The notes beneath the pieces are model-generated. The model saw only the letters and a program-made list of their open reading frames with translations. It had not been told where the DNA came from and searched no databases. Shown here one piece after another: positions 2,861-47,927 of a DNA stretch of 64,000 bases (within the stretch, counting starts at the first letter, position 1; each line of letters begins with the position of its first letter). The translations under genes and the position numbers were made by a program. The DNA is from an uncultured Methanosarcinales archaeon. Lineage in GTDB: Archaea > Nanobdellota > Nanobdellia > Woesearchaeales > CAZKBD01. The stretch spans positions 289 through 64,288 of the forward strand of contig CAZKBD010000001.1 in assembly GCA_964550945.1 (NCBI GenBank). Direction: 5' to 3'.

Positions 2861-2944
2861 AAAATGCAAAAACAAAAATTAAAACTAAAAAAGAAAAAAA
2901 AGGAAATTGTTATTGTAGAGCAGAAATCCAAATCAGCCCAGAGG

Positions 2945-3562
2945 ATGGCACTGCACGCTTTGCAGAAGCAGATGAGCGCCTTAAGGCTTAAGGAATATCT
3001 AGTATTAGCTAGCTTTATGTTCGGCGCTGCTGTGTTAAGGTCTTTAATGCAGGGCTTTCCAAGTGTAGAGCCTTTGACATTCTTTGCAATCCTTGCTGGC
3101 TGGCTTTTCGGAAAGAAAAAAGGATTTCTTGTTGGAGCAGGCTCTTTGTACATATCAAATTTTTTAGTATTTGGCGGCCAAGGGCCATGGACAGTATTCC
3201 AAGCTTTAGCTTTTGGGATAGCTGGTTTTTTAGGCGGCTTCCTGAATAAGAAATGGGGCGTTGTGAGAAAATTGATTGGAGGAGTTACAGTAGCAGTTTT
3301 GGCTACAGTTATTTTTGAATTTTTAATGAACATAAGCTGGGGAGCGATGTTTGGCAATCCTTTGTTCGCAATTGTCGCAGGGATACCATTCGGCATTATA
3401 CATGTGCTATCCAATCTTGTATTTGCCTTGTTTCTGCCTTTTGCAATGAGTTTCATCAATAAAAAAGGAAGATTTGATGAGATGGAAATTTGCAGGGAAT
3501 TGCTTAAAAAGTTCCCTAAAAAGATCAGGTCAAAGATCAAGATTGATGACAATGAACAATAA
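2945..3562 (+). CDS. Polytopic membrane protein, ECF-transporter S-component-like (substrate-capture subunit)
   Basis: Several Gly-rich TM helices (FGAAVLRSL..., AGWLFGKKKGFLVGAGSLYISNF..., IAGFLGGFLNKKW). The ORF as given starts at 2864 with a Lys-run encoded by A-rich DNA. An ATG at 2945 (MALHALQ) sits just before the first TM helix, so the start is uncertain. The antisense ORF 2857..3552 is low-complexity and rejected. Confidence 0.4.
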   Translation: MALHALQKQMSALRLKEYLVLASFMFGAAVLRSLMQGFPSVEPLTFFAILAGWLFGKKKGFLVGAGSLYISNFLVFGGQGPWTVFQALAFGIAGFLGGFLNKKWGVVRKLIGGVTVAVLATVIFEFLMNISWGAMFGNPLFAIVAGIPFGIIHVLSNLVFALFLPFAMSFINKKGRFDEMEICRELLKKFPKKIRSKIKIDDNEQ

Positions 3563-3899
3563 GATCATTTTTTTGATAATTGCTGCATTCATTATTAATG
3601 GCTGCAGTTACCAAGAGCAAAACACGAAAGGAGATACAACCTTAACTGTAAAATCAATAGGAAACACGACAACACAAGAATACAAAGTTAATGGTGTTAA
3701 TGCTTTAGATTTATTGAAGTTTAGCCATAATGTAAAATTAACATTTGGCAATTATCTGGAATGCATCGATGATGTCTGCGCAAATAAAGAGTATATCTGG
3801 ACGTTTTATGTTAATGGTGCTAAGTCTCCTTTAGGAGTGAAGCAGTATCAAGTAAAAAGTGGTGATAGTATAGAGTTTAGATTCAACAAAGGAGGATAA
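3546..3899 (+). CDS. Small secreted (lipo)protein, DUF4430-like
   Basis: Signal peptide with a lipobox-like FIINGC. C-terminal W.FYVNG...G...Y.VKSGD.IEFRF pattern typical of DUF4430. Internal ATG at 3546 chosen because the upstream part of the ORF overlaps the preceding gene. Confidence 0.5.
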   Translation: MTMNNKIIFLIIAAFIINGCSYQEQNTKGDTTLTVKSIGNTTTQEYKVNGVNALDLLKFSHNVKLTFGNYLECIDDVCANKEYIWTFYVNGAKSPLGVKQYQVKSGDSIEFRFNKGG

Positions 3900-9279: not shown

Positions 9280-10027
9280 GATATTCAAGATAGATAAGAC
9301 GCTCTTGTTCGTTATAATTGCTGATATCTTGTTTTATTTGTGCTTAGCTGGCAGCTTATACTCATTAAACCTCATTATGATTGATAATTTCAAATCATTA
9401 GAAAGCACTTATTCTACACTTGAAAAGCTCAGCTCTATCTATAATGGAGATGCAATCTCATCTGCTGAGTCATTCACAGCTGAGCTGGAATCGACGCAAA
9501 ATATACTCCGTAAAGTGCTTATCAACTCAGCGATAATAAGCATTATCTTTTATTTTTTAATAATTACGTTGATATCCTTGATAAAAGGCTTTATTTGGTC
9601 TAGAATATCCAGCCAAAGATTCAGCTTCAGATATTTTTTGAAGAGTTGGCTGCTTAATTTATTATGGGTTAGTTTCTGGTGCATAATCCTTGCATCAACT
9701 ATAATCTTATTCAAGGCGAATATAAACTACTATATTGTTGCTTTGGAGCTGTTATTATTTATCTACAGCAGTTCTGTTATAAGAGCTTTATTCAACGAGA
9801 AGGAAAGCCTTTTTAGCCAGATTAAGAAAGGGATTAAATCTTGTTTTAAGTTTAGGAAATTGCCCCTGTTGTGTTTATTCATCAGCTTTATTATATTTGC
9901 TCTAATCTATTATCTGATGTTGTTTGTATCGCAGGGAATAACCTTTGTGGTTATAGTCCTTATCATGCTTGCACTATACTCTGCTTTGGCTAGAAGATAT
10001 ATCTTAGATAGCTTGCGCTTGGTTTAA
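9260..10027 (+). CDS. Polytopic membrane protein of unknown function
   Basis: Multiple hydrophobic helices. The start is ambiguous (ATG at 9239 or 9260, both overlapping the metG 3' end). Weak similarity in layout to 43388..44191. Confidence 0.45.
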   Translation: MKEQLVRIFKIDKTLLFVIIADILFYLCLAGSLYSLNLIMIDNFKSLESTYSTLEKLSSIYNGDAISSAESFTAELESTQNILRKVLINSAIISIIFYFLIITLISLIKGFIWSRISSQRFSFRYFLKSWLLNLLWVSFWCIILASTIILFKANINYYIVALELLLFIYSSSVIRALFNEKESLFSQIKKGIKSCFKFRKLPLLCLFISFIIFALIYYLMLFVSQGITFVVIVLIMLALYSALARRYILDSLRLV

Positions 10028-11212
10028 TGTCTGGCAAGAATCTCTTAGATAGCTATTAACTAATTTATCGCAAACTGAATAGTCTTTTTGGTCTAAAACA
10101 AAATTCATATAGCAGGAATCCCTTATCGATTCTTTGGCAATGCCTTCGCAAGCTGAACTGTCAATTTTTGCTTTTGCAATAGATGCATAACATCTGTCTT
10201 TTGACAATTCTTCTGCAATCTTGTCGCAGAAGATGGCATTTTTTGCCACTTCAGCAATGTTCCTGAAGCAGCTATCTCTGTACATTGCAATATCAACCAT
10301 ATCGCAATAATTTGCTGCTGATCTTACATCTGTTTCAGAGATTTTCTTGATTTTATCCAATGTCTCAGTCAAAGTAAGGCCTTCAAACATATCTGTTTGC
10401 TGCTCAATGCAGTCCTTAGAGCATTTTGCAGGAGTCTCTGATTCTTCGCAGATGTTATTGCCGCAGCACGGCATAATTTGTTTATGCTTGCATTCAGAAT
10501 TTTCATCACAATAGTCTTCTGTGCAAAGGTCATAATCATTGCAGCTTGGCGGGCATTTCTTTTCTGCCTCACATGGTTTGCATGCCCCTCCACAATCAAC
10601 GCCTTCTTCATTTTGGTTTTGTATCTTGTCAGTGCAGCTGGATTTTACTGATTCTTCATATATGCTGATTGTTAAAGCTGCTTTTGCTTCCTTGCCATCA
10701 TAAACAGAAACAGCATTTAGTACAGCATTGCCAGGGGCAGCATCGTCTGGAATCTTTATCTTTATTTGCTTGCTTGCTTTGGTCTCAACAGCAGCTGTTT
10801 CTTGATACGATGTTATTGTAGATGATGTATCAATAGTTACCAGGCTATAGCTGGTTGTTGCATCAACTCTTTTTCCGAAATTCGTTAGCTCTCTAATGAA
10901 AACAATCTCTTGGCCAGGCATTACGGTTGTCTGCACTGGCTCTAACTTAATGTCAAGAATAGCTTCCTGGCCAGGTTTAAGGTATATCACCAAAGAAGCA
11001 ACTACCAATGCAAGCCCTATCACAACAAATAACAATGTTAATACCGTTGTTTTTGAAAGATGATGCACTACATGTGTTGTTGAATAAGCCTTGCTAATCG
11101 AACTATTGATATCATTCTGGCTGTATCCAGAATTGATAAGATGGGCCCTTATGCTATCAATGTCATAGCCCTGCTCAAGGTACTGTTTTATGAATTCGAC
11201 TAGCTTTTGCAC
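10004..11212 (-). CDS. Single-pass membrane protein: small cytoplasmic N-domain, TM, extracellular beta-domain, Cys-rich module and (K/R)D(S/Y)C(F/Y/I) repeats
   Basis: Paralog of 19775..20893: MQKLVEFIKQYLEQGYDIDSIRAHLINSGY versus MPQKLTVYIKQQLDRGFDINSIREHLIQYGY. TM helix at residues ~57-78. GVDCGGACKPCE Cys cluster. Repeats YRDSCF / KDRCY / RDSCY / RDSCQ. The start codon is GTG at 11212. Confidence 0.65.
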   Translation of the reverse strand: MQKLVEFIKQYLEQGYDIDSIRAHLINSGYSQNDINSSISKAYSTTHVVHHLSKTTVLTLLFVVIGLALVVASLVIYLKPGQEAILDIKLEPVQTTVMPGQEIVFIRELTNFGKRVDATTSYSLVTIDTSSTITSYQETAAVETKASKQIKIKIPDDAAPGNAVLNAVSVYDGKEAKAALTISIYEESVKSSCTDKIQNQNEEGVDCGGACKPCEAEKKCPPSCNDYDLCTEDYCDENSECKHKQIMPCCGNNICEESETPAKCSKDCIEQQTDMFEGLTLTETLDKIKKISETDVRSAANYCDMVDIAMYRDSCFRNIAEVAKNAIFCDKIAEELSKDRCYASIAKAKIDSSACEGIAKESIRDSCYMNFVLDQKDYSVCDKLVNSYLRDSCQTLNQAQAI

Positions 11213-11447: not shown

Positions 11448-11924
11448 TTAAGATGTGCATGCCTGTTCTATGGCTGGTGTCCCAGTGCAACCTGTAGGTG
11501 TTGAGGAAGCTACTTCTCTTGTTTGTTTGCCGCCCACACACTCTCCCCACGCTGAATAAGTGTAAGTACATGTAGGGGTTGTTTGTTGCTGAGCTGGTGT
11601 ACAAGCCTGCTCTGTGGCAGGTATTCCGGTGCAACCTGTTGGAACAGCAGAAGCTACTGTGCGAATTTGTTTACTATTAGTGCATTCTCCCCACGCTGAA
11701 TAAGCATATGTGCATACAGCTGGTTGTGGAGCCTGCTGAGCTGTGGTCTGCTGGTAAGTTGGCGGTATGTTCGACACTTCAGTGGACTTCTTATCATCAT
11801 TTTTCTCCTCTTTGTTGCAGCATTCGCCGCAGCAATCACAACCACTACATCCAACCAAGAATACGGAAGCTAACAAAGAGGCAATAATCCCTGCAATAAT
11901 CAAAATCTTTGCTATTTTGTCCAT
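11448..11924 (-). CDS. Cys-cluster lipoprotein (lipobox LVGC, CSGCDCCGECC) with two tandem W..W..C repeats
   Basis: N-terminus MDKIAKILIIAGIIASLLASVFLVGCSGCDCCGECCNKEE. Two ~40-aa repeats CTYxYSAWGECxxxKQxRxVASxxPTGCTGxPAxEQACT. Confidence 0.6.
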   Translation of the reverse strand: MDKIAKILIIAGIIASLLASVFLVGCSGCDCCGECCNKEEKNDDKKSTEVSNIPPTYQQTTAQQAPQPAVCTYAYSAWGECTNSKQIRTVASAVPTGCTGIPATEQACTPAQQQTTPTCTYTYSAWGECVGGKQTREVASSTPTGCTGTPAIEQACTS

Positions 11925-11976: not shown

Positions 11977-12186
11977 TCATAAGGCATTAATTGGTTGAGA
12001 GCTTATTATTAAATGGTCTATAACTTCAGGCGCTTGAGTGTTACTTGAAGAGCTAGTATTGTTTTTGTCTTCCTTGTTGCAGCATTCTCCGCAGCAATCA
12101 CATCCGCTGCATCCAGTCAAGAAAACCATTATCAACAAAGAAGTGATAATTCCTGCAATAATCAAAATCTTTGCTATTTTACCCAT
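11977..12186 (-). CDS. Cys-cluster lipoprotein paralog (LTGC lipobox, CSGCDCCGECC)
   Basis: MGKIAKILIIAGIITSLLIMVFLTGCSGCDCCGECCNKEDKNN, then a Ser-rich tail. Near-identical N-terminus to 11448..11924. Confidence 0.55.
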   Translation of the reverse strand: MGKIAKILIIAGIITSLLIMVFLTGCSGCDCCGECCNKEDKNNTSSSSNTQAPEVIDHLIISSQPINAL

Positions 12187-12363
12187 ATAACCACCAGTTT
12201 AATTTGGAGTATATAAATCTTATTTCTATTATGGGAGTAGTGATAAATCAAATAGCTTGATTACCAACTTGAAGAAGTGCCACTATTGCTATCTTCCCAT
12301 CCATTATGCACTAAAAAGCCTTCTGCAAATGGGCCATCTATTTGGTCAAAAACCGACCATACA

Positions 12364-12606
12364 CTAAGCGCCAGCATCAGGAACAGCCTCCTCATTTATC
12401 CCCACTTTATAACAACTTCTCTCTGCGAGATTTGATGTACTAGATGCACTACTGTCTTTGTTGGTATCATCTTTATTAGGATTTTTGTCATCAGATTTTT
12501 CAGGATCGCAGCATTCGCCGCAGCAATCACAAGCAACTAAGAATATCAAAAGCAAAATTGATACTGTAAAACCCAATCTAATTAGGGCCCTTCCTAAATC
12601 TCCCAT
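12364..12606 (-). CDS. Cys-cluster lipoprotein paralog (LVAC lipobox, CDCCGECC)
   Basis: MGDLGRALIRLGFTVSILLLIFLVACDCCGECCDPEKSDDKN... Third member of the tandem family. Confidence 0.5.
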   Translation of the reverse strand: MGDLGRALIRLGFTVSILLLIFLVACDCCGECCDPEKSDDKNPNKDDTNKDSSASSTSNLAERSCYKVGINEEAVPDAGA

Positions 12607-12733
12607 ACCGACATTGATTCAACTGGAGATATATAAATCTTGTTATGCTCTAGAATATATCTCATAAAATATATCGCCTTAAAGATAGAAAAGCTTAATA
12701 AGAGGCTTATATGGATATTTTTGGGGGATTTGA

Positions 12734-14263
12734 ATGAAAGTACTATTTGTCAGACCACCAAGATATAAATGGCCTTTTCATTCGGAGAAAAGCAGCTTTT
12801 GGCAGCCATTAGGCTTTGCTTCAATGGCAGCTGTCTTAAGGGATGGAGTAGATGGACTTGACATAAAGATTATTGATTGCCCTGTACAACAATTTGGGTG
12901 GAAAACAACAGAAGAAATAATTTCAAGGGAAAATCCAGATATTCTTTGCGTAGGAGAAGAAACAGTCTCGGCTCATGAAGCAATCAAACTGGTGCATATC
13001 ACCAAATCTTTGTTTCCTTCTTGCATTGTTATTGCAGGAGGTAATCATTTTGCATATATGATCAAAGATAGTCTATTAAGTCAGCCTATCGACTTCATTG
13101 TAAGATTCGAAGGAGAACAAACTCTTTTGGAGCTCATAAGGGCTATCAAGAAAAACCCAAAACCTAACATTAAAAAACTAAAGAGAATAAAAGGAATAGC
13201 ATTTTTGCATGAAAATAAGATAATTGAAACTGAGTTAAGGCCTTTGCTCGATATGGAAAAGCTGCCATTGCCTGCTTATGACCTATTGCCTATGGAATTA
13301 TATGGTAAAGGAGCTAGGTCGCATCCAGACTTAGTTGCAGTCGAACATTCCCGCGGTTGCAGCTGTTCATGCAATTTTTGTATTTTGTGGAAGCAATTTG
13401 GCCAGGTTGACCTTAAAACCGGAGTTGTAAAACCATGCTACAGGACAAAGTCTCCAAAAAAAACCATTGATGAGGTTTTGTATCTGGCTAAAAAATACAA
13501 AAGAAAAACCTTCTGCTGGGTAGATCCAACATGGAATGTCAACTCCAAATGGAACTCAGAATTCTCAAAATTAATGATTGATTCTGGCCTTGATGTTGAC
13601 CATTCAGTATGGATGAGGGCAGACTGCCTTGTTAGGGACCATCAAAAAGGAATCTTTGCAAGCCAAATAAATGCAGGAATCAAACAAGTGATGATTGGCA
13701 TAGAAAGGACAGACAATGATGACCTTGCTTATTTTAACAAGAAGGGCTATTCATATGAAACAACAAAGAAAGCCTTCGAGATTGTAAAAGGCTATCCAGA
13801 GGTTTTGTCAGTTGCGAGTTATATATATGGTATACCTAATGAGACAAGGCAATCAATGAAGCGATTCTACGATTTATTGAGGGATATCCCTTTTGATATA
13901 GGGCTTGCGATCCCTTTGACCCCTAATCCAGGAACAAAATTCTTCGATGACCTTGAAAAGAGGAATCTTATCGAGATAAGGGAGTTTAAGTATTATAATT
14001 TCATTAATCCAGTCGCGAGAAGCAAATACCTTAGCAGAAATGCGTTAATGTTGAATATGGTTTGGAATGAAAACAGGGTAAGGGCAAGCAAAGAGCACCT
14101 GGTAAAATTCCAGTCAAGAGCAAAGAGAAGAAAAACAGCAACAATCAACCTAGCAAAAGGAAAGGCTCAAGTAATGTTCAGGTATGCCAAAGGAATATTG
14201 CAGGAAACCTTGCTTGGCAGATATTACAATTACAACATCAAGCCAGAGTGGTATGAGAAATGA
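12734..14263 (+). CDS. B12-binding-domain radical SAM enzyme
   Basis: N-terminal cobalamin-binding-like domain. Radical SAM Cys triad within EHSRGCSCSCNFCILW (C-x3-C-x2-C). GGGGG-type RBS upstream of the ATG. Confidence 0.8.
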   Translation: MKVLFVRPPRYKWPFHSEKSSFWQPLGFASMAAVLRDGVDGLDIKIIDCPVQQFGWKTTEEIISRENPDILCVGEETVSAHEAIKLVHITKSLFPSCIVIAGGNHFAYMIKDSLLSQPIDFIVRFEGEQTLLELIRAIKKNPKPNIKKLKRIKGIAFLHENKIIETELRPLLDMEKLPLPAYDLLPMELYGKGARSHPDLVAVEHSRGCSCSCNFCILWKQFGQVDLKTGVVKPCYRTKSPKKTIDEVLYLAKKYKRKTFCWVDPTWNVNSKWNSEFSKLMIDSGLDVDHSVWMRADCLVRDHQKGIFASQINAGIKQVMIGIERTDNDDLAYFNKKGYSYETTKKAFEIVKGYPEVLSVASYIYGIPNETRQSMKRFYDLLRDIPFDIGLAIPLTPNPGTKFFDDLEKRNLIEIREFKYYNFINPVARSKYLSRNALMLNMVWNENRVRASKEHLVKFQSRAKRRKTATINLAKGKAQVMFRYAKGILQETLLGRYYNYNIKPEWYEK

Positions 14264-14352
14264 CAAAAACAAAACACACTAGGGTTTTACCCACCAGAGA
14301 TATCTGAGAATAATCAATAAACCTCTTCGTGGGGCATTCTATCTTGCTCTTT

Positions 14353-15192
14353 TTATAATGTTTTAAAATCCTTTTTAGATTTATTGATTAAGTGATGGGA
14401 ATGTATCAAGGCGATAGAAGAAAATATTGATATCACCAACCCCGCCCACTGCCCAACACTCATCCCAAGATGCTTTGTAACTGGCACGCTCCTGCCCACA
14501 ACCAGGAAATCAATCCAGAAATTGGCAAAGCAATATAACAGCAAAAACCAGAGGATAACCTCTCCATCAAACCTTTTTCCGAATTTGCTTTTTTCTGTTT
14601 TCTCTTTCCCAAAAAACACCTTCAAGATTATAAAAATCAACAAAGCGCTTAAAGCCATATAACCTGAAGCAGGATGCCTGCAAATGCCATCAGGCCACAT
14701 GAAGCACCAAGGAAGGTCTGTTGGAGCGCCCTTAATATCGCCCCTTAATGTACAGCCAAACAAGCGATAGATAAAAAATGCCAAAGCAGCTGGAGCAGCT
14801 ATTATATCCGCAATCCTTGCGAACTCAATTTGCCAGACCTTCTTTTCTTTTTTGAACCTCACTAAAGCATAAACAACAAGCCCTATTGCCCCGCCAATAA
14901 TGCAGCCTATGCTGTATAACCCTCCTTTTGACAAATTAAAAATATCAATTATTGTCTTTAAGCCTTCCCAGTGAGCAATATAAAACCATATCCTTCCGCC
15001 TGCTAAAGCTGAAAAAAGCACTATAGAGAAGAAGACAAAATATTCCTTCACATCCATCTTCAGCTTTTGCTTTTCCAGGCCCTTGATAACCAAAAAGATA
15101 AAAATAGCAAAAGCCAAAGTCATTGCAACAGGCTCTGTCCCTAGTCTAAGCATCCCTATCTGATAATATTTTACTGGCGTGTAAATTATCAT
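14353..15192 (-). CDS. lgt: Prolipoprotein diacylglyceryl transferase
   Basis: Polytopic membrane protein with the Lgt signature region LAGGRIWFYIAHWEG (compare E. coli FLVGGRIGYVLFY) and matching overall size and topology. Confidence 0.75.
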   Translation of the reverse strand: MIIYTPVKYYQIGMLRLGTEPVAMTLAFAIFIFLVIKGLEKQKLKMDVKEYFVFFSIVLFSALAGGRIWFYIAHWEGLKTIIDIFNLSKGGLYSIGCIIGGAIGLVVYALVRFKKEKKVWQIEFARIADIIAAPAALAFFIYRLFGCTLRGDIKGAPTDLPWCFMWPDGICRHPASGYMALSALLIFIILKVFFGKEKTEKSKFGKRFDGEVILWFLLLYCFANFWIDFLVVGRSVPVTKHLGMSVGQWAGLVISIFSSIALIHSHHLINKSKKDFKTL

Positions 15193-15330
15193 ATTTTGTG
15201 TTTGAATGTCTTATCTTTATAAATGTTTTTTGATTTAGGCTCAGTAGAAATCCTAGCCGTATGTGCCACGTTTTCTGGAGAATGATTAGCATTTTCTAGA
15301 AGTTAGAAACCATTAGGTTTTCCAACTGCC

Positions 15331-15417
15331 TTGTTTGCGTAGCAAACAATGGCAAAGGCCAGACGTCTCAGCTTTGCAAAGCAAAGGTGAGGGGTTGGAA
15401 ATGTATGCATTTCCAAG
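15331..15417. promoter_or_regulatory. Cluster of four perfect palindromes in the leader of the 954-aa surface-protein gene
   Basis: ttgtttgc-gta-gcaaacaa (15331-15349), agacgtct (15361-15368), gctttgcaaagc (15371-15382), ttggaaatg-tatg-catttccaa (15396-15417). Confidence 0.4.
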
Positions 15418-15509
15418 CGAGCTTACCAAGTTCCTATACGAAGTATGGGGTTTTGGTAAGCAAAGTAGGGTATTTCGCAACATCCTCAGTTTTACCGAAA
15501 GATTTATTT

Positions 15510-18371
15510 ATGGCGGTTGCTAGAAACCAATTTGTGCTAAAAAAGAGGTGCAAGTTTATCAGCAAAAAATCTCAGATCACCATATTTATAATACTGGGGA
15601 TAATGCTAATTATCTCCATTGGCTTTGTGATAGTTATGAGGGGTCCTGAAGCAGAAATCCAGGAAAAAGAGATTATAAAGCCAACTCTTCCTAAAGTAGA
15701 AAAAGGCACATTCGAGATATACGTAAAGAATTGTATCCGTGATACAGCTATTCCTTTGATAATAGATTTTGCTAAGCATGGAGGCACTTTAGACTCATTA
15801 ACCCCGTTAAAGGATGCAAGAGTCTATTATAACGCTCCTTACAGATATCTATGCGCATACGATTTAGAGCATGGATGTGTCAATAAGATTATAACAAGAA
15901 ACGACATGGAGCAGGAGATTAATGAGCTGATAGAGCAGCCATTCCTTAAGTGCGTAAATCTTGACGCATTTACCGAGCAAAACTACAAGATCGAAACAGG
16001 CCTTTTAGCAATAAATACAACAATAAATGTGGATGATGTTGCTATTACACTAAACTATCCTATGAAAATATCCAGAGGAGAGCTTTTGTTTGAGTTAGAA
16101 ACATTCTCTGAGAAGATTGAAGTTCCTCTTGGCAGGCTTTATGATTTGGCTGTCCAGATTACAAATAGCGAAATAGTGAACAGGACATTTGACAAGGATG
16201 AATGGATGTACAAAAAAGGCGTAAATGTTATAATAGAAAAACATAAGCCCTATCCAGATATTATTTATAGATTAAATAAATACATAAAGGAGACAAATAC
16301 CAATCTGACATTCAATTTTGCAATACAAGGTTATGACACAGTTGCTTTAATTGGCTCAGAAGAGCCGATAAGCCTTTACAATTATTGCTATTTCCCAACA
16401 GAAAAAAATTGCTTTGCGAATTCTGACAAAAATAGATGCGAATCCAAAGGCGGAATCTCTGTAGAAACTCCCTTGGATTGCAGCAGTCCAACTGAATTTA
16501 CAGGCACAACCTTGTGTGATGGCCAACAATGCAACAACTGCAATGATAAGCGAAATGGTGAAACCTGGTGCTTGTATGACAGCATTTCTGGAGCAGGGCT
16601 TGATAGGGCTGGCTCAAGGCATTTCAAGCAAAGCTGCATAAACGGAAAAACATACACAGAAGAATGCAGGGATTTTAGGGAAGAATTATGCACAACAAAA
16701 GACAACAAAGCGGTTTGCAGGGAAAATAGGTGGCAGGATTGCGCCTTGCAAAATAATCTAATTGGCTGCCAGAATGAGGAATTAAGAGATTGCATCTGGT
16801 ATCCGCTGCTTTTTGACACCAAAAATTCTCTGGTTCCAAGATGCGGCCCTATTGTGCCTCCTGGATTTAGATTCTGGGCAGGAGAAGGGATGAATGTATG
16901 CGCCTTTGGCAATGATGTTGGTGAATGCCCAGACACAAAAACTTATTGCCCTGACAATTGGGATGACAGCGCTGCACAATACTGCTATTCAATAGGAGAC
17001 TGCGGAAATTATCTAAACTATCTAGGCCAGCTAACTGAAACCGGATTTTATAATTCTGATCTGATTGCTTATGATCTCCATGTACGTCCAATATTGTATT
17101 ATAAAAATCTCAAAGCAGATGACAGCAAGATTGATCTAGCTACAGGCAAGAATAATAGGGTAATTGCAAATTACGACAACCATCCTTACCCAGGCTCTTC
17201 CTACATAGCCCATGCAACTACTGATGAAATAACTGGATTTGTGAATGATTACATCGATAAAGTTTTAGATTGGGAAATTTGCGATATATTTGAATGTGAT
17301 TTTGGACTTATCCCTAAAAGGCCGCTATACAAACATTTTAAGAAATATGTTATTGGCATCAGCTTTTGCCTGCCTTGGGGCGCTCCTCCTGATGGTGATT
17401 GCGAGCAATGCAATGAAGATCCTGTTAAGCCATGCGGCGAATACAGATGTAGAAGCATCTCTAAAATATGCAATTATTATGAAGATATAAGTACAGGAAT
17501 AGGCAAGTGCGAAACACCAAGGCCAAGCTCGACAACATTAACTGTTGAGGTTGTAGAAGCGCCAGAAGGCTATAATTTCGTAAAGGATTATTTTGCCTGG
17601 AAATCCAAATTACTTGTCGGCAAAAAATTAATGCCTAAAGTTGGGCAGGATAGCGTAATGACATTAAAAGTTAATACAAACCAGGATGCAACATGCTGGA
17701 TAGCTCCTCTGCCTGAATATCTAGACACATTTATTGGAGGAGGGCAATACAGTAAAGAGCATAACCTCACAATGAATATACCTGGTGCAATTGAATTGTA
17801 TCTCAAAAAGATACAAAGCTTGATGAGTATAAGCAGCTTCTCTCAAGGCTATGCGCTTCCAGACAGCATGACTGCCAGTGATTATTTAAGATTTGAAGAT
17901 ATGCTCAAAGACACCTTCCCTGATCTTTCACCTGGAGAATTAAGGGCATTGCAAGCCTCATTAGAAAAAATAATAACAGATGCTGATTCAAGGAAATTTT
18001 ATATGTTCATCAAATGCATGGACAAATTCGGAAATATTAATAACAATAATTATATAACATTTGATATAAGCAGCGACGACAAGGCTCCAACAGTAAAGAT
18101 AGTTTCTCCTGGAAGGGATGAATCTGTTCCAGCAGGCACCATTGATTTCACTTATAAGCCAAAGGATAATATGGCATTAAAGTTATCATGCAGTTTATGG
18201 TACAACAGCACAACTGAAGAATGGCATAAGAGATCCGCTCTCCTAAGCTGGAACAATATAGAAGTCAAAATGCCTGTTGAGCTGGCTGCAGGCACATATA
18301 CCTGGAGCATTTCCTGCACAGACGGATTTAATGAAGCATTTGGAGAAAAAAGGACATTGATCGTTACTTGA
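15510..18371 (+). CDS. Large TM-anchored surface protein (954 aa): N-domain paralogous to 21371 and 35417 proteins, plus Cys-rich core and Ig-like C-terminus
   Basis: Start placed at MAVARNQFVLKKRCKFISKKSQITIFIILG, which matches the K-rich-then-QITVFIILG N-termini of the paralogs. The ORF track starts earlier at 15387. A Cys-dense segment spans residues ~360-560. Confidence 0.65.
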   Translation: MAVARNQFVLKKRCKFISKKSQITIFIILGIMLIISIGFVIVMRGPEAEIQEKEIIKPTLPKVEKGTFEIYVKNCIRDTAIPLIIDFAKHGGTLDSLTPLKDARVYYNAPYRYLCAYDLEHGCVNKIITRNDMEQEINELIEQPFLKCVNLDAFTEQNYKIETGLLAINTTINVDDVAITLNYPMKISRGELLFELETFSEKIEVPLGRLYDLAVQITNSEIVNRTFDKDEWMYKKGVNVIIEKHKPYPDIIYRLNKYIKETNTNLTFNFAIQGYDTVALIGSEEPISLYNYCYFPTEKNCFANSDKNRCESKGGISVETPLDCSSPTEFTGTTLCDGQQCNNCNDKRNGETWCLYDSISGAGLDRAGSRHFKQSCINGKTYTEECRDFREELCTTKDNKAVCRENRWQDCALQNNLIGCQNEELRDCIWYPLLFDTKNSLVPRCGPIVPPGFRFWAGEGMNVCAFGNDVGECPDTKTYCPDNWDDSAAQYCYSIGDCGNYLNYLGQLTETGFYNSDLIAYDLHVRPILYYKNLKADDSKIDLATGKNNRVIANYDNHPYPGSSYIAHATTDEITGFVNDYIDKVLDWEICDIFECDFGLIPKRPLYKHFKKYVIGISFCLPWGAPPDGDCEQCNEDPVKPCGEYRCRSISKICNYYEDISTGIGKCETPRPSSTTLTVEVVEAPEGYNFVKDYFAWKSKLLVGKKLMPKVGQDSVMTLKVNTNQDATCWIAPLPEYLDTFIGGGQYSKEHNLTMNIPGAIELYLKKIQSLMSISSFSQGYALPDSMTASDYLRFEDMLKDTFPDLSPGELRALQASLEKIITDADSRKFYMFIKCMDKFGNINNNNYITFDISSDDKAPTVKIVSPGRDESVPAGTIDFTYKPKDNMALKLSCSLWYNSTTEEWHKRSALLSWNNIEVKMPVELAAGTYTWSISCTDGFNEAFGEKRTLIVT

Positions 18372-19035
18372 TTGACTTCAGAAACAATTTTTCCAGGTCT
18401 GATTTTGGAATTTTTCTTTCAACAATCATCTTCCCATGGTCAATTATACCAATATCTGTGCAAACCTCTTTTATTACAGCCAGATCATGAGAGCTTATCA
18501 CTACTGTCTTGTTTTCAAGAGAGTTCATAAGGTCTTTTACTAGTTTGATGGCTTTGGGGTCTAATCCATTAGTAGGCTCATCCAGAATAATAAGCTCTGG
18601 ATCCCCTGTTAATGTTTTTGCTATTGACAGAAGCTTGGTCATGCCATGTGAAAGATTCTTCACCTTTGTATTTGACAACCCTACTTTAGATAATAAATCA
18701 GACGCTTCTTTCTTTGCATTCTCCACATTTTTCAGCTTTGCGAAAAAGGTTAGATTTTCTAATGCAGTCAATTCTGGATTCAAGCTCGAATTCTGCAAAA
18801 ATGCCCCTAATCTCTGCTGGATTTCATTAAAATTGTTTATGTCTACACCAAATAGTTTTATAGAGCCGGAATTAGGGTATCTTACCCTGCAGAACATAGA
18901 CAAAGTTGTTGTTTTGCCTGCTCCATTCCTTCCTATAAACCCGTATACAGAATTCTTTTTCACATTCATATCTAGCTTGTTCACCGCAATATTTTTCCCA
19001 TACTTTTTTGTCAGATCTTTTGTCTCAATTATCAT
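18364..19035 (-). CDS. ABC transporter ATP-binding protein
   Basis: Walker A GRNGAGKTT, signature LSHGM, Walker B LIILDEPTNGLD. Confidence 0.85.
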   Translation of the reverse strand: MIIETKDLTKKYGKNIAVNKLDMNVKKNSVYGFIGRNGAGKTTTLSMFCRVRYPNSGSIKLFGVDINNFNEIQQRLGAFLQNSSLNPELTALENLTFFAKLKNVENAKKEASDLLSKVGLSNTKVKNLSHGMTKLLSIAKTLTGDPELIILDEPTNGLDPKAIKLVKDLMNSLENKTVVISSHDLAVIKEVCTDIGIIDHGKMIVERKIPKSDLEKLFLKSIK

Positions 19036-19778
19036 AGTTCACGCCTTTTAAATGCCATTAAAGCTATTGCGATAAATATTGCTGCAGAGACTATGAGTAT
19101 TGCCAAAGGTGAAAACACCCTGCCAAAACTGTCAGTCAGCAGATAGAATCCATCAACATAATGTTTGTATGGAGACAGCCACCCGATTGTTGTGCTGATA
19201 AAAAACAAAGGCAGCGCATTTGCAATCAAGCCAAGGTAAAGGCTTCTTTGTGGATTTGATGTCAAGCTCGATGTCATCACAGAAAGCGCCACAAAATACA
19301 AAGAATAAATGCTAAGGAAAAGCCATAATAAGAATCCATCAAATAGCACATATTCTCCTGTTTTTTGGAATATGTAAAACACAGCAATAATATAGATCAA
19401 GAAGTTGATTGTTATATTAATCAAAAAGATGCCTAAAAACTTTCCAAGCACTATCGAGTTTCTTTTGGCTGCAACAACCAGATTTCTTATTGTCTCTTTG
19501 TGTATCTCTTTAGAGATGCAATCATAAGACAGCAATAAAGAGAATACTGGCAGTAGAAATATGGACATAAAATAAAACAGCACTAAAGTGTAAGGCACGC
19601 TTTTGCCATAGAAGCCAAATACCTGTATAAGGATCAGCCTGAAGTTCATTGCAAATGAAACACTTTGGCTGATGCCGAATACCAATAGTGCTACATAAAC
19701 AAATAATAAAAAAAGCACTTTTTTGTTTTTCAAAGACTGCTTGATTTCGTCTAGGGCTATTGTTAATGTTTGTCTCAT
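19032..19778 (-). CDS. ABC-2 family permease
   Basis: Six-helix membrane protein directly upstream of the ATPase. The ATG at 19778 overlaps the stop of the upstream gene (ATGA). The ORF track extends to a TTG at 19796. Confidence 0.6.
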   Translation of the reverse strand: MRQTLTIALDEIKQSLKNKKVLFLLFVYVALLVFGISQSVSFAMNFRLILIQVFGFYGKSVPYTLVLFYFMSIFLLPVFSLLLSYDCISKEIHKETIRNLVVAAKRNSIVLGKFLGIFLINITINFLIYIIAVFYIFQKTGEYVLFDGFLLWLFLSIYSLYFVALSVMTSSLTSNPQRSLYLGLIANALPLFFISTTIGWLSPYKHYVDGFYLLTDSFGRVFSPLAILIVSAAIFIAIALMAFKRREL

Positions 19779-20893
19779 TTGGATAATAAGGCGCAAGACT
19801 CCTTTAAATTCTTATTGGTTATAAGTTCGCAGTCTGAATAGTCATTTGTATTTATCGCAACATTCATTATGCACGAATCTTTTCTTACAATATCCGATAT
19901 CTGCATGCACAACCTGTTATTAGCTGAGCTAAGCGCTATCTCATTAAAGCAGTAATCTTTTCCAGCATTTTCTTCAATTTCAGCGCATAATTTTGCGGCT
20001 TTTTGCGGGTCTTTTTCAACTACAGCATTAACCTCCTTCATTCTCTCCTGAAGGTTCATAGATTCATTTTTCCCACAATCTATACATTCCTCTTGCTCGC
20101 AACCAATATCCTCACAGCATGGCTCGATTGCATCATGCTTGCATTCAAAATTCGTTGTCTCATTGCAATAATCAAAAGTGCAGCTGTTGTTGTCATCACA
20201 CTCTGGGCAGGGGTTTTCTTGTTTACATGCAGTGCATGGGCCTCCACAATCAATATCTTCTTCTCCATGGTTTTTTATGCCATCAAGACATGTTTCAGTA
20301 TTTTTGGTGATATCTGTTGTAAAGACAGAAAATTCAAATGATGCTGAGGCTGTTTTTTGCTGGTAATTGGCAGTAGTCTCTAATTTATAAGTTCCAGCCT
20401 TTGCTTCGCTAGGCATTCTTATTTCTGATAGCTTGGAAGCTCGTGTAATAACTCCAATTTCCTCTTCTAATGATGATACTACAGTCCCATTAGTATCTAT
20501 AATTTGGTGTACTAAGTGCACATCAAACTTTTGGTCGTGTCCAATATTAAAAAGATTTATCTTGAATTCAACAGGCTGTCCTGGCTCTACTGAAGTGGTT
20601 ACTGCATTAATTTCCAAGTCAAGAAGGTACTCCTTTTCTCCCTTAGGAGACATATAGATAAAGATAGATGCTATAACTATCGAGATTCCCATAAAGAAAA
20701 AGATCAATACCAAAGCAGAAGATTTTGAGAGGTGTATTGTGTGCCTTGCTTCCTTATGCCTGTATAGGTTTTCTATGGTATCATCCACTTGTTTAAATGA
20801 ATAGCCATATTGTATCAAATGTTCTCTTATAGAATTGATATCAAAGCCCCTGTCTAATTGCTGTTTGATGTATACTGTTAGCTTTTGGGGCAT
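19775..20893 (-). CDS. Single-pass Cys-rich membrane protein, paralog of 10004..11212; first gene of the ABC-2 operon
   Basis: Same architecture: cytoplasmic N-domain, TM, beta-domain, CGGPCTAC Cys module, KDYCF / KDSCI / KESCA repeats. Its stop overlaps the permease start. Confidence 0.65.
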   Translation of the reverse strand: MPQKLTVYIKQQLDRGFDINSIREHLIQYGYSFKQVDDTIENLYRHKEARHTIHLSKSSALVLIFFFMGISIVIASIFIYMSPKGEKEYLLDLEINAVTTSVEPGQPVEFKINLFNIGHDQKFDVHLVHQIIDTNGTVVSSLEEEIGVITRASKLSEIRMPSEAKAGTYKLETTANYQQKTASASFEFSVFTTDITKNTETCLDGIKNHGEEDIDCGGPCTACKQENPCPECDDNNSCTFDYCNETTNFECKHDAIEPCCEDIGCEQEECIDCGKNESMNLQERMKEVNAVVEKDPQKAAKLCAEIEENAGKDYCFNEIALSSANNRLCMQISDIVRKDSCIMNVAINTNDYSDCELITNKNLKESCALLSK

Positions 20894-21212: not shown

Positions 21213-21374
21213 ATGAGTGTCCAGATAAGGATAACCGTAAGCAAAGAAATTGATGAGCTTCTTTCTAAAGTAGCTAAAAAGCTTGGAAAAAAGAAGAGTA
21301 TGCTAGCCCGCGAACTGATGGAGCAAAAGATGTATGACCTGGAATTGATACAAAAAGGGCTAAAGGAAATATGA
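21213..21374 (+). CDS. Ribbon-helix-helix (CopG/Arc-like) small DNA-binding protein
   Basis: 53 aa: MSVQIRITVSKEIDELLSKVAKKLGKKKSMLARELMEQ... (beta-strand then two helices). The stop overlaps the ATG of the next gene (ATGA). Not in the ORF track because it is under 60 aa. Confidence 0.5.
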   Translation: MSVQIRITVSKEIDELLSKVAKKLGKKKSMLARELMEQKMYDLELIQKGLKEI

Positions 21375-23488
21375 AAAAAGGCAAAAAAGGCCAGATTACT
21401 GTATTTATAATATTGGGCCTTCTTTTGCTGGCTGCAGTTGTTGTTTATGTCAGCATAAATCAAACAGAAAAGGAGAAAGGATCAGCTGCTATTCCAAAAG
21501 TTGAAAAAGTTCCAATAGAATTCCAGCCAATCCAGAATTATGTCGAGAACTGCCTTAAGCTAACTGCTGAAGAAGGACTGAAGTTAGCGATGGACCACGG
21601 CGGCTATATAGATCCAATAACTTCCGGAATTAATTCAAATCCGACAGAGCCAACAAGCTCAAATGGTGTTTCGCTTCCTGGAGATTTCATAATTCCTTAT
21701 TGGTATTATCTAAAAAGCGATAATAGATGCATCAAAAATTGTGAATTCAGCTCAGAAAGGCCTCCATTAAGAAGAAATGAAGGCCCTAAATCAATAGAAG
21801 CCCAGCTTGATAGTTACATCAAAGTAAAAATCAAAGATTGTACAAGAAATTTTGAAGCATTTAAAGAAGACGCAAATGTTGTCGAGAATGGTGTAATAAG
21901 CATTACATCTAGTGTGTTGGATAGTGATGTATTATTTGTGATGGTATATCCATTGGCTGTCACAAAAGAAGGCGTTACAAAAGAGATGAATAATTTCTAT
22001 GTCAGGATTCCAGTCAGATTAAATGATATCTATGAGCTAGCCACAATAATGACTAATCTTGAGGAGAAATACAGGTTCTTAGAGAGAGATGCTGTCCAGC
22101 TTATTGTTGGATTTTCCGGGCTTGATGAAGACAAGCTGCCTCCAATGAGCGAATCCAGAGTCCAGTTTGGCAATGAAATCACATGGACAAAAAGCAAGGT
22201 TAAAAAAGATGTTGAATCAATGCTCTCGAGCTATATACAGCTTCTAAGGGCGCAAAATACCCTCAATTATCAGGAGTATAATTTTGGCGACCCTTACAAA
22301 GATGCATTATACAATCTGCATATGATAATCCCATTTGACCAGGATTATAATCATCTTGCTGCCAGTTTCAATTATCTCCCTGAAACTCCTATTTATTTTG
22401 ATTTGAATTGTGATGGCGAAACCTGCAAGCCTTTATCTGTTTCTCAAAACTTCATTGCCCTGTTCGGCCTCCAAAGATATGAGTTTGCCTATGATATAAG
22501 CTTCCCAGTGATGGTTGAGATATTTGACCCAGCTGCATTTGATGGTAAAGGTTATTATTTCAGGTATTATCTGGAAGCTAACATAGGGAATAATGAGGTT
22601 ATGCTGCATAATTTCACGCAATTAGAAAGCATAGATATGGCAGCTGGCTCTATGATGTGCGATGCTGACAAGAGAAATTCAGGAGAGATAGCCATAAATG
22701 TCAAAAACAAAAAAGGCCAGAATATTGATGGTGCTGATGTCGCATTTAGCTGCGCTGATGAAAGCTGCATTATAGGAGCAACTTCTAATGGCTTGCTTAA
22801 GGAAAAGCTGCCTGTTTGTATTGGAGGTTTTGTAACTGTCATGAAAGAAGGGTATGTTTCAACATCAAACCTATTAAGCACTGTGTTGGACAAGAAAGAC
22901 AGTGTTGACATTGTTTTAGATCCATTAATGGAAAAGCCATTCAAAGTCAAAAAGAAATTGATTGTTAGGGCAGGCGATAATTGGATATTCACCAATAACG
23001 AAGTTGATATTGGCAGGGATGAGCAAGCTATTGTAAGAATCACAAGAGTAGGCTCTTTAGGCGATGAAGAGCATAATTTTGCTGCTGAATATAATGGAAA
23101 TCAAAGCATCTATGGCGGAGAAGAAAGTTTCTTGACAATTGCGCCTGGAACCTATGATATTAGCATACAGGTCATCAACAATCAGAGATTTGTAATACCT
23201 CCAGAAAAAAGAGAAACCGGCAGCGGATTTTTTGGCATAGGCGATGAAGAATACACTATCCCTAAAGTTGAATTTAATGATTCATGGCCTTCTGGCGGAC
23301 TAAATCTAAGATATGAGTTCAAAGCAGAAGAACTTGACAAGAGCAAGAACATTGTATTTTTCGCTGCAGCTCCTGCATTAGACCTTATACCAGAAGAAGA
23401 CAGGCATGTTGAAGATTTAGAGCAGTTGTCCAAAACTGATGAATATTCAGCTGCATATGCAGAGCATTTAAAGCCAAGGCTGGAGTAA
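21371..23488 (+). CDS. TM-anchored surface protein (705 aa), module A gene 1
   Basis: MKKGKKGQITVFIILGLLLLAAVVV anchor. N-terminal ~250 aa paralogous to the 15510 and 35417 proteins. Confidence 0.65.
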   Translation: MKKGKKGQITVFIILGLLLLAAVVVYVSINQTEKEKGSAAIPKVEKVPIEFQPIQNYVENCLKLTAEEGLKLAMDHGGYIDPITSGINSNPTEPTSSNGVSLPGDFIIPYWYYLKSDNRCIKNCEFSSERPPLRRNEGPKSIEAQLDSYIKVKIKDCTRNFEAFKEDANVVENGVISITSSVLDSDVLFVMVYPLAVTKEGVTKEMNNFYVRIPVRLNDIYELATIMTNLEEKYRFLERDAVQLIVGFSGLDEDKLPPMSESRVQFGNEITWTKSKVKKDVESMLSSYIQLLRAQNTLNYQEYNFGDPYKDALYNLHMIIPFDQDYNHLAASFNYLPETPIYFDLNCDGETCKPLSVSQNFIALFGLQRYEFAYDISFPVMVEIFDPAAFDGKGYYFRYYLEANIGNNEVMLHNFTQLESIDMAAGSMMCDADKRNSGEIAINVKNKKGQNIDGADVAFSCADESCIIGATSNGLLKEKLPVCIGGFVTVMKEGYVSTSNLLSTVLDKKDSVDIVLDPLMEKPFKVKKKLIVRAGDNWIFTNNEVDIGRDEQAIVRITRVGSLGDEEHNFAAEYNGNQSIYGGEESFLTIAPGTYDISIQVINNQRFVIPPEKRETGSGFFGIGDEEYTIPKVEFNDSWPSGGLNLRYEFKAEELDKSKNIVFFAAAPALDLIPEEDRHVEDLEQLSKTDEYSAAYAEHLKPRLE

Positions 23489-23489
23489 G

Positions 23490-27178: not shown

Positions 27179-27709
27179 ATGGACAAGATAACTGAATTGT
27201 TTATGGAAGAGCCAGAGAAAGAGTTTCATGCTAGGGAGATCTCTAGGCTGGCTAAATTGTCACCTACCACCTCCTCTAAGTATCTTAACATTCTGCTTAG
27301 AAGAGGGATTGTCACATCCAGGAAGATGACCAATCTTGTGTTATTTAAGGCAGATACTGAAAATTTGAGCTATAAGGCTATGAAAAGGTCATACAATCTT
27401 CAAAGGCTGAATCAATCCGGTCTTATTAATCACCTTGTTGAAGAATATAATGAACCGGAGGCAATAGTGCTATTTGGCTCTTTTGATAAAGGCGAGGACT
27501 CAAAAAGGAGTGACATAGACCTTTTAGTTGTCACTCCACTAAAGAAAACAGTTGATGTTGCTTTGTTTGAAAAAAAACTAAAGAGGACTATCCAGATTTT
27601 TGTACATCCAAAAAAAGAGATTGAATCCATGAAGACTAAAAACAAAAGGTTGCTTAATAATTTAGTTAATGGGTCAGTGATTTATGGCTATTGGGAGGCA
27701 TTTAGATGA
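27179..27709 (+). CDS. wHTH-fused minimal nucleotidyltransferase (MNT)
   Basis: AIVLFGSFDKGEDSKRSDIDLLVV matches the GS-x9-13-DxD nucleotidyltransferase motif. N-terminal HTH. Confidence 0.75.
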   Translation: MDKITELFMEEPEKEFHAREISRLAKLSPTTSSKYLNILLRRGIVTSRKMTNLVLFKADTENLSYKAMKRSYNLQRLNQSGLINHLVEEYNEPEAIVLFGSFDKGEDSKRSDIDLLVVTPLKKTVDVALFEKKLKRTIQIFVHPKKEIESMKTKNKRLLNNLVNGSVIYGYWEAFR

Positions 27710-29858: not shown

Positions 29859-29862
29859 ACAT

Positions 29863-47907: not shown

Positions 47908-47927
47908 ATGTGAGTTGTCAAGAACCG

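Follow-up and report, generated by a model that had tools for sequence, protein, structure and literature searches.

The lgt-like gene and its product

The stretch of DNA considered here (the window: 64,000 nucleotides of contig CAZKBD010000001.1, from an uncultured archaeon) contains at positions 14353-15192 a gene whose product resembles Lgt, the prolipoprotein diacylglyceryl transferase of bacteria. On one side it faces a convergent gene for a B12-binding radical SAM protein, beyond which lie three small genes for exported proteins with a dense cluster of cysteines; on the other side, in divergent orientation, lies a gene for a large surface protein (Table 1). The lgt-like gene, its bacterial ancestry and its recurrent association with small cysteine-cluster proteins are the subject of this analysis.

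A preliminary description, made from the letters of the window alone, had proposed an Lgt homolog here, and the proposal holds at exactly these coordinates: the product is polytopic, with seven transmembrane (TM) segments, and belongs to the LGT family by both profile and fold. Its match to the Pfam LGT family (PF01790) scores 98.2 bits against a cut-off of 24.9 and covers profile positions 16-239 of 240. Used as a single sequence, the protein found no match in the PDB (phmmer); a profile made from it and 13 homologs (14 sequences) matched E. coli Lgt (5AZB/5AZC) at E=4e-16 and gave a residue-level alignment. An AlphaFold2 (AF2) model (pLDDT 83.5, pTM 0.83), compared with the PDB by Foldseek, returned E. 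coli Lgt (5AZB, probability 1.00, TM-scores 0.69/0.68) as its sole significant match. Given the Pfam score, the profile match and the structural match, membership of the family and its fold is secure. The GGR(I/W) sequence on which the first assignment leaned is present (GGRIW, residues 65-69), but it is the TM2 motif around E. coli R73 and not the formal Lgt signature; that signature, G142-G154, is kept only partly (YRLFGCTLRGDIKG).

An archaeal clade within a divergent Lgt sub-family

Homologs were taken from 72 taxonomically labelled GTDB loci and from metagenome loci (L numbers below), and a neighbour-joining tree was computed from Poisson distances with 100 bootstrap replicates. Canonical Lgts carry the motif GRWGNxxNQExxG together with Y26 (conserved residues are given in E. 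coli numbering). The window protein belongs to what we call the 'R-x-G-C' sub-family, whose hallmark is N146C and which splits into several groups: one from the Candidate Phyla Radiation (CPR; GRIGCxLINDHQG, W26), one from Dehalococcoidia (GRIGCTINGDAYG, H26), another with 'GC..GCCYG', and an archaeal clade comprising the window, L001-L006, L073 and L075, whose motif is R(x)xGC...G(H/D)..G and whose residue 26 is invariably E. All 100 replicates recover this clade as monophyletic, and in 81 of 100 its sister consists of CPR R-x-G-C sequences only (with or without L019). This topology is consistent with the lateral acquisition from bacteria suggested in the preliminary description. Of the 150 nearest cluster representatives (clustered at 50% identity), 43 bear E26, so the clade is sizeable. 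Confined to it is an insertion, nine residues long and basic, that extends the loop joining TM5 to TM6 on the cytoplasmic side; the loop motif, (E/K)KTxKxKFGKRFDGE, reads EKTEKSKFGKRFDGE in the window protein (approximately residues 197-211).

In some archaea a genome encodes two Lgt-like paralogs (L004, 4644-5447 and 9953-10801; L005, 7136-7942, with L006, 627-1412). The paralog with the loop insertion adjoins the gene for a large surface protein, and the insertion-free paralog lies in or beside GT2 (glycosyltransferase family 2) and B12-radical-SAM genes (L004 main copy, L006). This split suggests sub-functionalisation.

LGT-family genes also occur in archaea outside the clade. A closed Woesearchaeota chromosome (OZ242164.1, L053) carries one at 9878-10621 (215 bits) among genes for S6e, L31e, S19e and aIF2-alpha; it is fully canonical (GRLANFINQELVG, Y26, H103, R239). 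A closed archaeal chromosome (CP070794.1, L019) carries a GC..CC-type gene at 9671-10447 (171 bits) beside aIF2-gamma and S6e, and a gene for a classical LAAGC lipoprotein at 1901-2233. Like the window's gene, both are embedded among archaeal genes, but both fall outside its clade; since that clade is monophyletic without them in every replicate, they look like independent acquisitions. LGT-family genes have thus entered DPANN archaea at least three times, the window clade, the canonical L053 gene and the GC..CC-type L019 gene being separate lineages.

Archaeal host

Archaeal markers in the window include a ribosomal S13e/S15P gene with a Ribosomal_S13_N domain, TrmB-type regulators, DUF116 and a geranylgeranyl-reductase (GGR)-like flavoprotein, and the nearest species-level genomes are archaeal metagenome-assembled genomes labelled Woesearchaeota, Nanoarchaeota or 'archaeon'. 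The host is a DPANN archaeon, probably of the Woesearchaeota. Scans of the window for tRNAs and Rfam families gave nothing informative on taxonomy. An independent JGI contig (L082) is 99.6% identical over window positions 13336-15469, a span with the 3' end of the radical SAM gene and the lgt-like gene, and encodes an identical Lgt-like protein, joined there to fibrillarin and Nop; with the markers in the window this bears out the archaeal context that had been proposed. L082 diverges at about window position 15469, within the intergenic region between lgt and big994 (the large surface protein), where Nop, fibrillarin and an AIR-synthase-like gene replace big994; either the two strains differ by a rearrangement or one assembly is broken at this point. 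Homologs are also found on contigs with EF-1alpha and S10 (L073, L075) and with MCM and RadA (L080). The lgt-like gene is preceded by an archaeal TATA-box-like element, TTTATAAA, whose spacing is shared by the TTTATATA boxes of two of the small genes, sm80 (12630-12637) and sm69 (12210-12217), and GC content around the gene is even (0.36-0.39).

These data bear on the suspicion that bacterial DNA has been mis-assembled or mis-binned into an archaeal contig, which could be entertained since LGT is elsewhere a family of bacteria and the closest relatives outside archaea belong to CPR bacteria, whose habitats DPANN archaea share. However, archaeal flanks recur in many independent assemblies (L082, L073, L075, L080), the promoter is archaeal and spaced like those of its neighbours, base composition is uniform, and the other LGT lineages sit among ribosomal and aIF2 genes in closed archaeal chromosomes. 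We reject this explanation, the probability of which is negligible.

Small cysteine-cluster proteins as conserved partners

The three small genes beyond the radical SAM gene (sm80, sm69 and sm158) are tandem paralogs and, as such, not independent observations within the window. Each product starts with a short basic n-region, which gives way to some 19 hydrophobic residues (the h-region) and then to a lipobox-like motif, with the dense cysteine cluster behind it; in sm158 an acidic/polar linker and two CTYxYSAWGxC...GCTG repeat domains follow. sm69 looks like a truncated paralog of sm158, and sm158 is likely to be the principal acceptor substrate, for the present a putative one. Over 44 codons the two genes share 25 identical codons and differ at 11 by synonymous changes only and at 8 by non-synonymous ones; the small genes are therefore real and under purifying selection.

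A database search with sm158 matched only the C-terminal CTYxYSAWGxC repeats, a small domain widespread in unrelated proteins. Because it missed the cysteine-cluster N-terminus, the spread of the partner family was judged from synteny alone. A tblastn search of the loci with the three small proteins gave no homologs at E<=1e-5, the queries being too short and simple, and partners were found by regular-expression scans. Of the 9 archaeal-clade loci, 7 have, no more than 5 kb from the lgt-like gene, a gene encoding a signal or TM segment followed by [GAS]C and further cysteines; of 63 other loci, 1 has such a gene (Fisher p=1.9e-7, at the level of loci). The single match outside the clade looks spurious, and most archaeal-clade loci without a match are short contigs. 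A strict pattern (hydrophobic run, Cys, at least four Cys in 12 residues) matches only the window and archaeal-clade loci; a loose one gives nine matches in 159 kb of clade loci against one, implausible, in 943 kb of other loci. The link between the lgt-like gene and small surface proteins of lipobox type, first drawn from the window, is thus strongly backed by conserved synteny.

Cysteine-cluster genes stand by lgt in the window (three copies), L001, L002, L003, L005, L073, L075 and L083, with a variant in L080. The partner is encoded directly upstream of lgt in L073 and L075 (PILGC/CEGCCED, on the same strand) and in L002 (LMSGC/KCCGPD), and in L083 (ITPGC/CGSCCGGG) its stop is 1 bp before the lgt start. 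In L001 (ISVGC/CAQCCGC) it lies ∼1.2 kb upstream; those of L003 (PLMAC/CSQGD) and L005 (IIGGC/CGGDEG) are near lgt, and that of L080 (...GSCCGCSGCGCCDT) is just past the radical SAM genes. The partners have a relaxed lipobox, with G or A in every case at position -1, C at +1 and usually C again at +2. For this reason, and given a more distant first cysteine in L080, we take the constant feature of the partners to be a cysteine cluster at the outer membrane face.

The preliminary description had noted four lipobox-like motifs, LVGC, LTGC, LVAC and INGC. All are present (Table 1), and on reading their N-termini about 4 of the ∼13 exported proteins of the window bear a lipobox cysteine; what recurs between loci, however, is the juxtamembrane cluster with its relaxed lipobox and not a classical lipobox. 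Nor does the INGC protein belong to the set in which it had been placed: this DUF4430 protein is a separate candidate lipoprotein outside the conserved cluster. Together with the ECF S-component-like gene it occupies a region (2864-3899) that resembles a bacterial-style substrate-capture module with a lipoprotein-type partner, for which the other loci show no link to the Lgt cluster.

Table 1. Features of the window, in order of position (aa, amino acids; slashes follow the lipobox-like motif).
Feature	Coordinates	Strand	Remarks
ECF S-component-like membrane protein	2864-3562		weak Pfam matches
DUF4430 protein with signal peptide	3546-3899	+	INGC; Pfam DUF4430, 42 bits; downstream of ECF S-component-like gene
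p402	10004-11212	-	cytoplasmic N-domain, one TM segment, Cys-rich extracellular region; in syntenic block
sm158, small exported protein	11448-11924	-	158 aa; signal/TM, ...VFLVGC/SGCDCCGECC
sm69, small exported protein	11977-12186	-	69 aa; signal/TM, ...VFLTGC/SGCDCCGECC
sm80, small exported protein	12364-12606	-	80 aa; signal/TM, ...IFLVAC/DCCGECC
B12-binding radical SAM protein	12734-14263	+	509 aa; Pfam B12-binding and Radical_SAM; convergent with lgt-like gene, divergent from small genes
Lgt-like integral membrane transferase	14353-15192	-	279 aa, 7-TM, ATG start; R-x-G-C sub-family, archaeal E26 clade
Archaeal TATA-box-like element	15216-15223	-	TTTATAAA; ends 23 nt upstream of lgt-like ATG
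big994, large surface protein	15510-18371	+	probable start Met-42 at 15510; class-III signal KKSQITIFIILG; divergent from lgt-like gene
p372, p402 paralog	19775-20893		built like p402, the cytoplasmic N-domain being conserved; weak Dicty_CTDC-like repeats in Cys-rich part of both paralogs
dxs	44978-46867		
ispG	46864-47907		
dxr	49471-50601		
fused ispDF	50942-52093		
ispE	52095-52946		
ispH	52897-53736		
Polyprenyl synthase	53729-54790		after the MEP genes
GGR-like flavoprotein	54807-55850	-	

Active-site residues

The active site was audited against the E. coli Lgt sequence and 148 family representatives. E. coli Lgt has six residues described as indispensable: Y26, H103, R143, N146, G154 and R239 (Mao et al. 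2016, PMC4728403; mBio 2026, PMC13251419). R143 is present in the window protein and in 150 of 150 representatives. G145, G154, D129, R73, H196-P197 and Y235, which are conserved in relatives, are likewise retained (in window numbering D129, R143, R67 for R73, G155 for G154, H173-P174 for H196-P197 and Y220 for Y235), and two acidic positions show conservative swaps (E151 to D152, E243 to D228). At G142 the window protein has Y, and the R and the GC are separated by an additional residue.

Two of the changes are shared beyond the window protein. N146 is C (C147), as in 144 of the 150 nearest representatives; Y26 is E (E20), which is invariant in the archaeal clade, the CPR relatives having W and the Dehalococcoidia H. 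In E. coli Lgt, Y26 hydrogen-bonds the sn-2 ester oxygen of phosphatidylglycerol (PMC4728403), and replacements of N146 and E151 have been recorded as variants in Lgt proteins whose relationship is more distant (PMC13251419). H103 corresponds to I95. Column 103 of the 78-sequence MAFFT alignment looked unreliable, and the region was re-read directly: canonical GRWGN-type Lgts themselves vary here between P, Q, Y, F and H, so that, on these sequences, H103 is not family-defining. It has elsewhere been called 'not absolutely conserved' (PMC13251419).

R239 is replaced by N (N224). The arginine is found in 134 of 150 relatives and in 34 of 42 members of the archaeal clade; it is substituted in 8 of 42 clade members versus ∼6% elsewhere, which suggests that R239N of the window belongs to a clade-wide relaxation and is not the decay of one copy. 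The protein sequence with N224 is identical in the second assembly, the DNA being 99.6% identical. Catalytic conservation, which the preliminary description had proposed as a check, is thus divided: R143, G145, G154, D129, H196-P197 and Y235 are kept, but Y26, N146, H103 and R239 are not.

These changes raise the question of whether the window copy is a weakened or dead relic, a pseudo-enzyme kept for a structural or chaperone-like role or in the course of being lost. Mutating R239 abolishes the activity of E. coli Lgt (PMC4728403), the window protein has lost Y26 and N146 as well, and two of the three adjacent small genes look truncated (69 and 80 aa). Yet the open reading frame (ORF) is full-length and has an intact archaeal promoter, the remaining clade-conserved residues and the conserved loop are intact, the protein is preserved unchanged in the second assembly, and loss of R239 in eight clade members suggests that the clade tolerates it. 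We regard decay as distinctly improbable.

Search for Lsp

Lsp (signal peptidase II, Peptidase_A8) was sought with E. coli LspA and then with an Lsp hidden Markov model made from CPR sequences. The model gave 15 strong matches in bacterial loci; in the six-frame translations of the 64-kb window and of the archaeal loci it found none, the best E-value there being 0.06. An LspA homolog is encoded directly upstream of the R-x-G-C-type lgt in eight CPR loci, in L013 (Actinomycetota) and in L017 (unclassified), although not in every bacterial R-x-G-C locus. Within the window and the loci searched, the bacterial-style maturation route envisaged in the preliminary description therefore finds no support in that form: the bacterial relatives have lspA beside lgt, and no Lsp was found in the archaeal loci.

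The bacterial arrangement is informative about the sub-family. Lying in lspA-lgt operons, the R-x-G-C Lgt of CPR bacteria is presumably a lipoprotein-maturation enzyme there, and the embedding of bacterial R-x-G-C genes in such operons argues that N146C-type enzymes are working Lgts. The surroundings in L086 (101-2325) are of bacterial type (MacB, PG_binding, PMT), and there two genes for classical LVGAGC lipoproteins stand directly upstream of an R-x-G-C lgt; this is a positive control, in which the sub-family travels with lipoprotein genes.

The surrounding gene block

A block of genes recurs in loci whose Lgt-like proteins are 34-63% identical to that of the window. It contains a p372/p402-like membrane protein, a large protein with a pilin-like signal, a small cysteine-cluster protein, the lgt-like gene and convergent B12-radical-SAM, radical-SAM and GT2 genes; some loci add UbiA, a type III polyketide synthase (PKS), a CMAS-like methyltransferase or a deacetylase. 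The preliminary description did not mention the large surface protein or the B12-radical-SAM/GT2 genes, which are conserved neighbours.

The large block protein (∼930-1090 aa) has a class-III (pilin-like) signal, (K/R)(G/S)Q(I/L)(T/S)xF(I/V)(I/V)xG, and is encoded divergently from lgt. No neighbour accompanies the archaeal Lgt clade more constantly than the family of big994: homologs (28-38% identity, tblastn) adjoin lgt in L001, L004, L005 and L073-77. L081 and L080 encode proteins of ∼950-1090 aa divergently from lgt with a like N-terminal signal (QITIFIILG and GQVSLFMVIG), the likeness being one of signal and size, and in L085 the contig end leaves only the N-terminal part of a big994-like protein. 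No Pfam family matches big994. Homologs of p402/p372 lie beside the large protein in L004, L005 and L073-77.

Three large proteins of the window carry pilin-like class-III signals, KKSQITIFIILG, KKGQITVFIILG and KKAQLTIFIIIG (regions 15510-18371, 21371-26999 and 35417-43368), and two of the three are followed by giants (1169 and 2017 aa) whose signal peptides are ordinary. No Pfam domain was found in the three pilin-signal proteins or in the two giants. The p372 gene is followed by genes for a pair of ABC-2 transporter proteins (18364-19796), and L080 and L081 again have an ABC ATPase.

The best NCBIfam scores of the B12-binding radical SAM protein are to BchE (197 bits), HpnJ (92) and HpnR (90), all far below the cut-offs, and a PDB search gave only a weak match to AprD4. 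Orthologs (36-42% identity) lie near lgt in L002, L004, L073 and L075/76, and one is found in L080. GT2 and B12-radical-SAM modules recall the head-group chemistry of hopanoids (HpnI/HpnJ) and of calditol, which we take as a lead and not as a test.

This company raises the possibility that the Lgt-like protein acts in membrane-lipid metabolism, transferring a glyceryl-lipid to a non-protein acceptor or remodelling head groups together with the B12-radical-SAM, radical-SAM, GT2, UbiA and methyltransferase products; the presence of the cysteine-cluster proteins nearby would then need another explanation, such as modification by the radical SAM enzymes as their substrates. The radical SAM ortholog near lgt in five independent loci fits such a role, as does the content of individual loci: a radical SAM gene, three B12-radical-SAM genes, GT2 and an epimerase in L073; UbiA, B12-radical-SAM and type III PKS in L075; two radical SAM genes, GT2 and B12-radical-SAM in L080; a CMAS-like methyltransferase and GT2 in L084; a deacetylase-like gene and GT2 in L085. 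The insertion-free paralogs in or beside GT2/radical-SAM genes point the same way, the cysteine-cluster genes are divergent from the B12-radical-SAM gene in the window and in L080, and Y26E, N146C and the relaxed R239 would permit a changed substrate. On the other hand, the nearest bacterial relatives lie in lspA-lgt operons, the cysteine-cluster gene is co-oriented directly upstream of lgt in an operon-like manner (L073, L075, L002, L083), and radical SAM enzymes are cytoplasmic, whereas the cysteine cluster is predicted to lie outside the membrane. A non-protein acceptor would also be without precedent: we know of no LGT-family member that uses one, and none was found in the literature searched. 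A purely lipid-metabolic role thus seems to us unlikely.

The pairing of cysteine-rich peptides with radical SAM genes also invites a reading as a ribosomally synthesised and post-translationally modified peptide (RiPP) system of SCIFF- or ranthipeptide-like type. This was considered less probable and not adopted: the cysteine cluster follows an N-in signal anchor and so is predicted to be extracytoplasmic, and the radical SAM protein is of the B12-binding class with best matches of lipid type.

Other features of the window

A complete bacterial methylerythritol phosphate (MEP/DOXP) pathway is encoded at 44978-55850 (Table 1). A 120-aa ORF between dxr and ispDF (50577-50939), oddly inserted among these genes, gives a borderline match to the PilZ domain (22.0 bits against a cut-off of 22.5). 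A bacterial MEP pathway has already been described in a monophyletic Woesearchaeota clade (PMC8204110). These genes are relevant here in that they bear on which lipids the Lgt-like enzyme could use.

Between the surface-protein clusters, at 27179-30438 and 34136-35246, are several helix-turn-helix (HTH) and nucleotidyltransferase (NTP_transf_2/Polbeta) genes, each followed or overlapped by a small ORF, those of the ORFs that were scanned matching no Pfam family, and a YhcG/DUF1016 PDDEXK nuclease gene (28244-29203). Taken together, these genes resemble a small island of toxin-antitoxin or defence functions.

Discussion

The explanation that best accounts for these observations is a functional, bacterium-derived and strongly diverged Lgt that lipidates the cysteine-cluster proteins without a bacterial-style Lsp step; we assign it a probability of roughly 0.55. 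Several observations weigh against it. The NCBIfam equivalog for lgt (TIGR00544) scores the window protein at 42.8 bits, far below its cut-off of 118.9, and the remaining NCBIfam lgt models likewise score it far below theirs. Four of the six residues required in E. coli are altered (Y26, H103, N146 and R239), among them the most conserved residue of Lgt, R239, the mutation of which is inactivating (PMC4728403). The one characterised Y26H/N146C protein, the M. smegmatis paralog MSMEG_5408, is presumed to be of low activity (PMC13251419), and biochemistry on R-x-G-C-type enzymes was not found in the literature searched. No Lsp was found in the 64 kb or in the archaeal loci. The lipoboxes of the partners are relaxed (SVGC, TPGC, IGGC), and in L080 the first cysteine stands ∼11 residues past the hydrophobic segment. 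Finally, the radical-SAM/GT2 neighbours are equally conserved and fit a lipid-metabolic role as well.

If the Lgt-like protein does lipidate its neighbours, a history and a mechanism can be sketched. An R-x-G-C Lgt of bacterial, CPR-like ancestry would have entered archaea, where the gene came under an archaeal promoter, lost its lspA partner and became fixed in a cell-surface block beside genes for multi-cysteine proteins with an N-in signal anchor and a relaxed lipobox ([GA]-C). Acting on the external side of the membrane, the enzyme would take the glyceryl-lipid moiety from a phosphoglycerol lipid and join it to the first cysteine's thiol, perhaps to several such thiols, giving a thioether anchor. 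Without Lsp, the signal segment may be retained as a second anchor or be cut by an unrelated peptidase. Y26E, N146C, the relaxed R239 and the basic loop could then represent adaptation to another donor (e.g., ether or isoprenoid lipids), to another acceptor, or to both. We may speculate that the donor changed to ether-linked isoprenoid lipids, seeing that the MEP pathway is encoded in the window along with a polyprenyl synthase and a GGR-like reductase.

A bolder proposal, which we consider unlikely in its entirety, is that the E26 Lgt and the 'cysteine-string' proteins form a hitherto undescribed surface-anchoring system of DPANN archaea, in which an Lgt retooled by Y26E, N146C, a dispensable R239 and the new cytoplasmic loop attaches archaeal or unusual lipids, possibly tailored by the B12-radical-SAM and GT2 enzymes, to one or several cysteines of the juxtamembrane cluster, independently of Lsp and of AliA/AliB. 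Were this true, the products might serve the episymbiotic cell surface together with the giant pilin-signal proteins.

Archaea have been stated to be without Lgt homologs (PMC6098224, FEMS Microbiol Rev 2018; PMC12462473, Nat Commun 2025; PMC13251419, mBio 2026, RefSeq genomes), and this absence was the premise that motivated the search in which AliA and AliB were found. The remark, made when the gene was first noticed, that bacterial-type Lgt is not a standard archaeal enzyme accords with that literature, which reports none in archaea. PF01790 genes in at least three separate DPANN lineages, two of them on closed chromosomes, contradict the published absence. Public annotation already names some such proteins Lgt (P0011), and the existence of the gene is thus visible in databases; no paper reporting archaeal LGT-family genes was found in the literature searched. 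To our knowledge three things are new: the archaea-specific clade and its residue changes, the loss of the adjacent lspA, and a conserved neighbourhood that pairs lgt with genes for cysteine-cluster proteins and pilin-signal giants and with those of radical SAM and GT2 enzymes. The family sequences further suggest that R239, H103, Y26 and N146 may not be universally required. A long-standing question becomes open to test, whether a bacterial-type Lgt can work on an archaeal membrane and which of its residues must change to do so, and each Lgt-like gene with its cysteine-cluster protein is a natural candidate pair of enzyme and substrate. The findings also bear on how the DPANN cell surface is built from mixed bacterial and archaeal parts, a bacterial MEP pathway being present in the clade as well.

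Comparison with known systems

With E. coli Lgt the window protein shares its Pfam family, its 7-TM fold and the placement of active-site motifs at the outer ends of TM4 and TM6. It differs in sequence (∼17% identity), in its much reduced periplasmic head domain and in the extra nine-residue basic cytoplasmic loop between TM5 and TM6; moreover, its host is archaeal, and no lspA partner was found for the gene.

The bacterial R-x-G-C Lgts (CPR/Patescibacteria, Dehalococcoidia, Elusimicrobia and others; MSMEG_5408) are alike in the change of N146 to C, in the short head domain and in an acidic, His or Cys residue at 151. They have W, H or Y at position 26 and are without the loop insertion, whereas the archaeal clade is set apart by its invariant E26, its relaxed R239 and its cysteine-cluster, pilin-signal and radical SAM neighbours.

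The closest archaeal parallel in function would be AliA/AliB of Haloferax volcanii (arCOG02177; PMC12462473), with which the proposed system shares thioether lipidation of a lipobox cysteine in an archaeon. AliA and AliB, however, are of a different family from LGT. The window protein is very unlikely to be a member of arCOG02177, since it matches PF01790 strongly and AliA is only marginally PF01790-like (PMC12462473).

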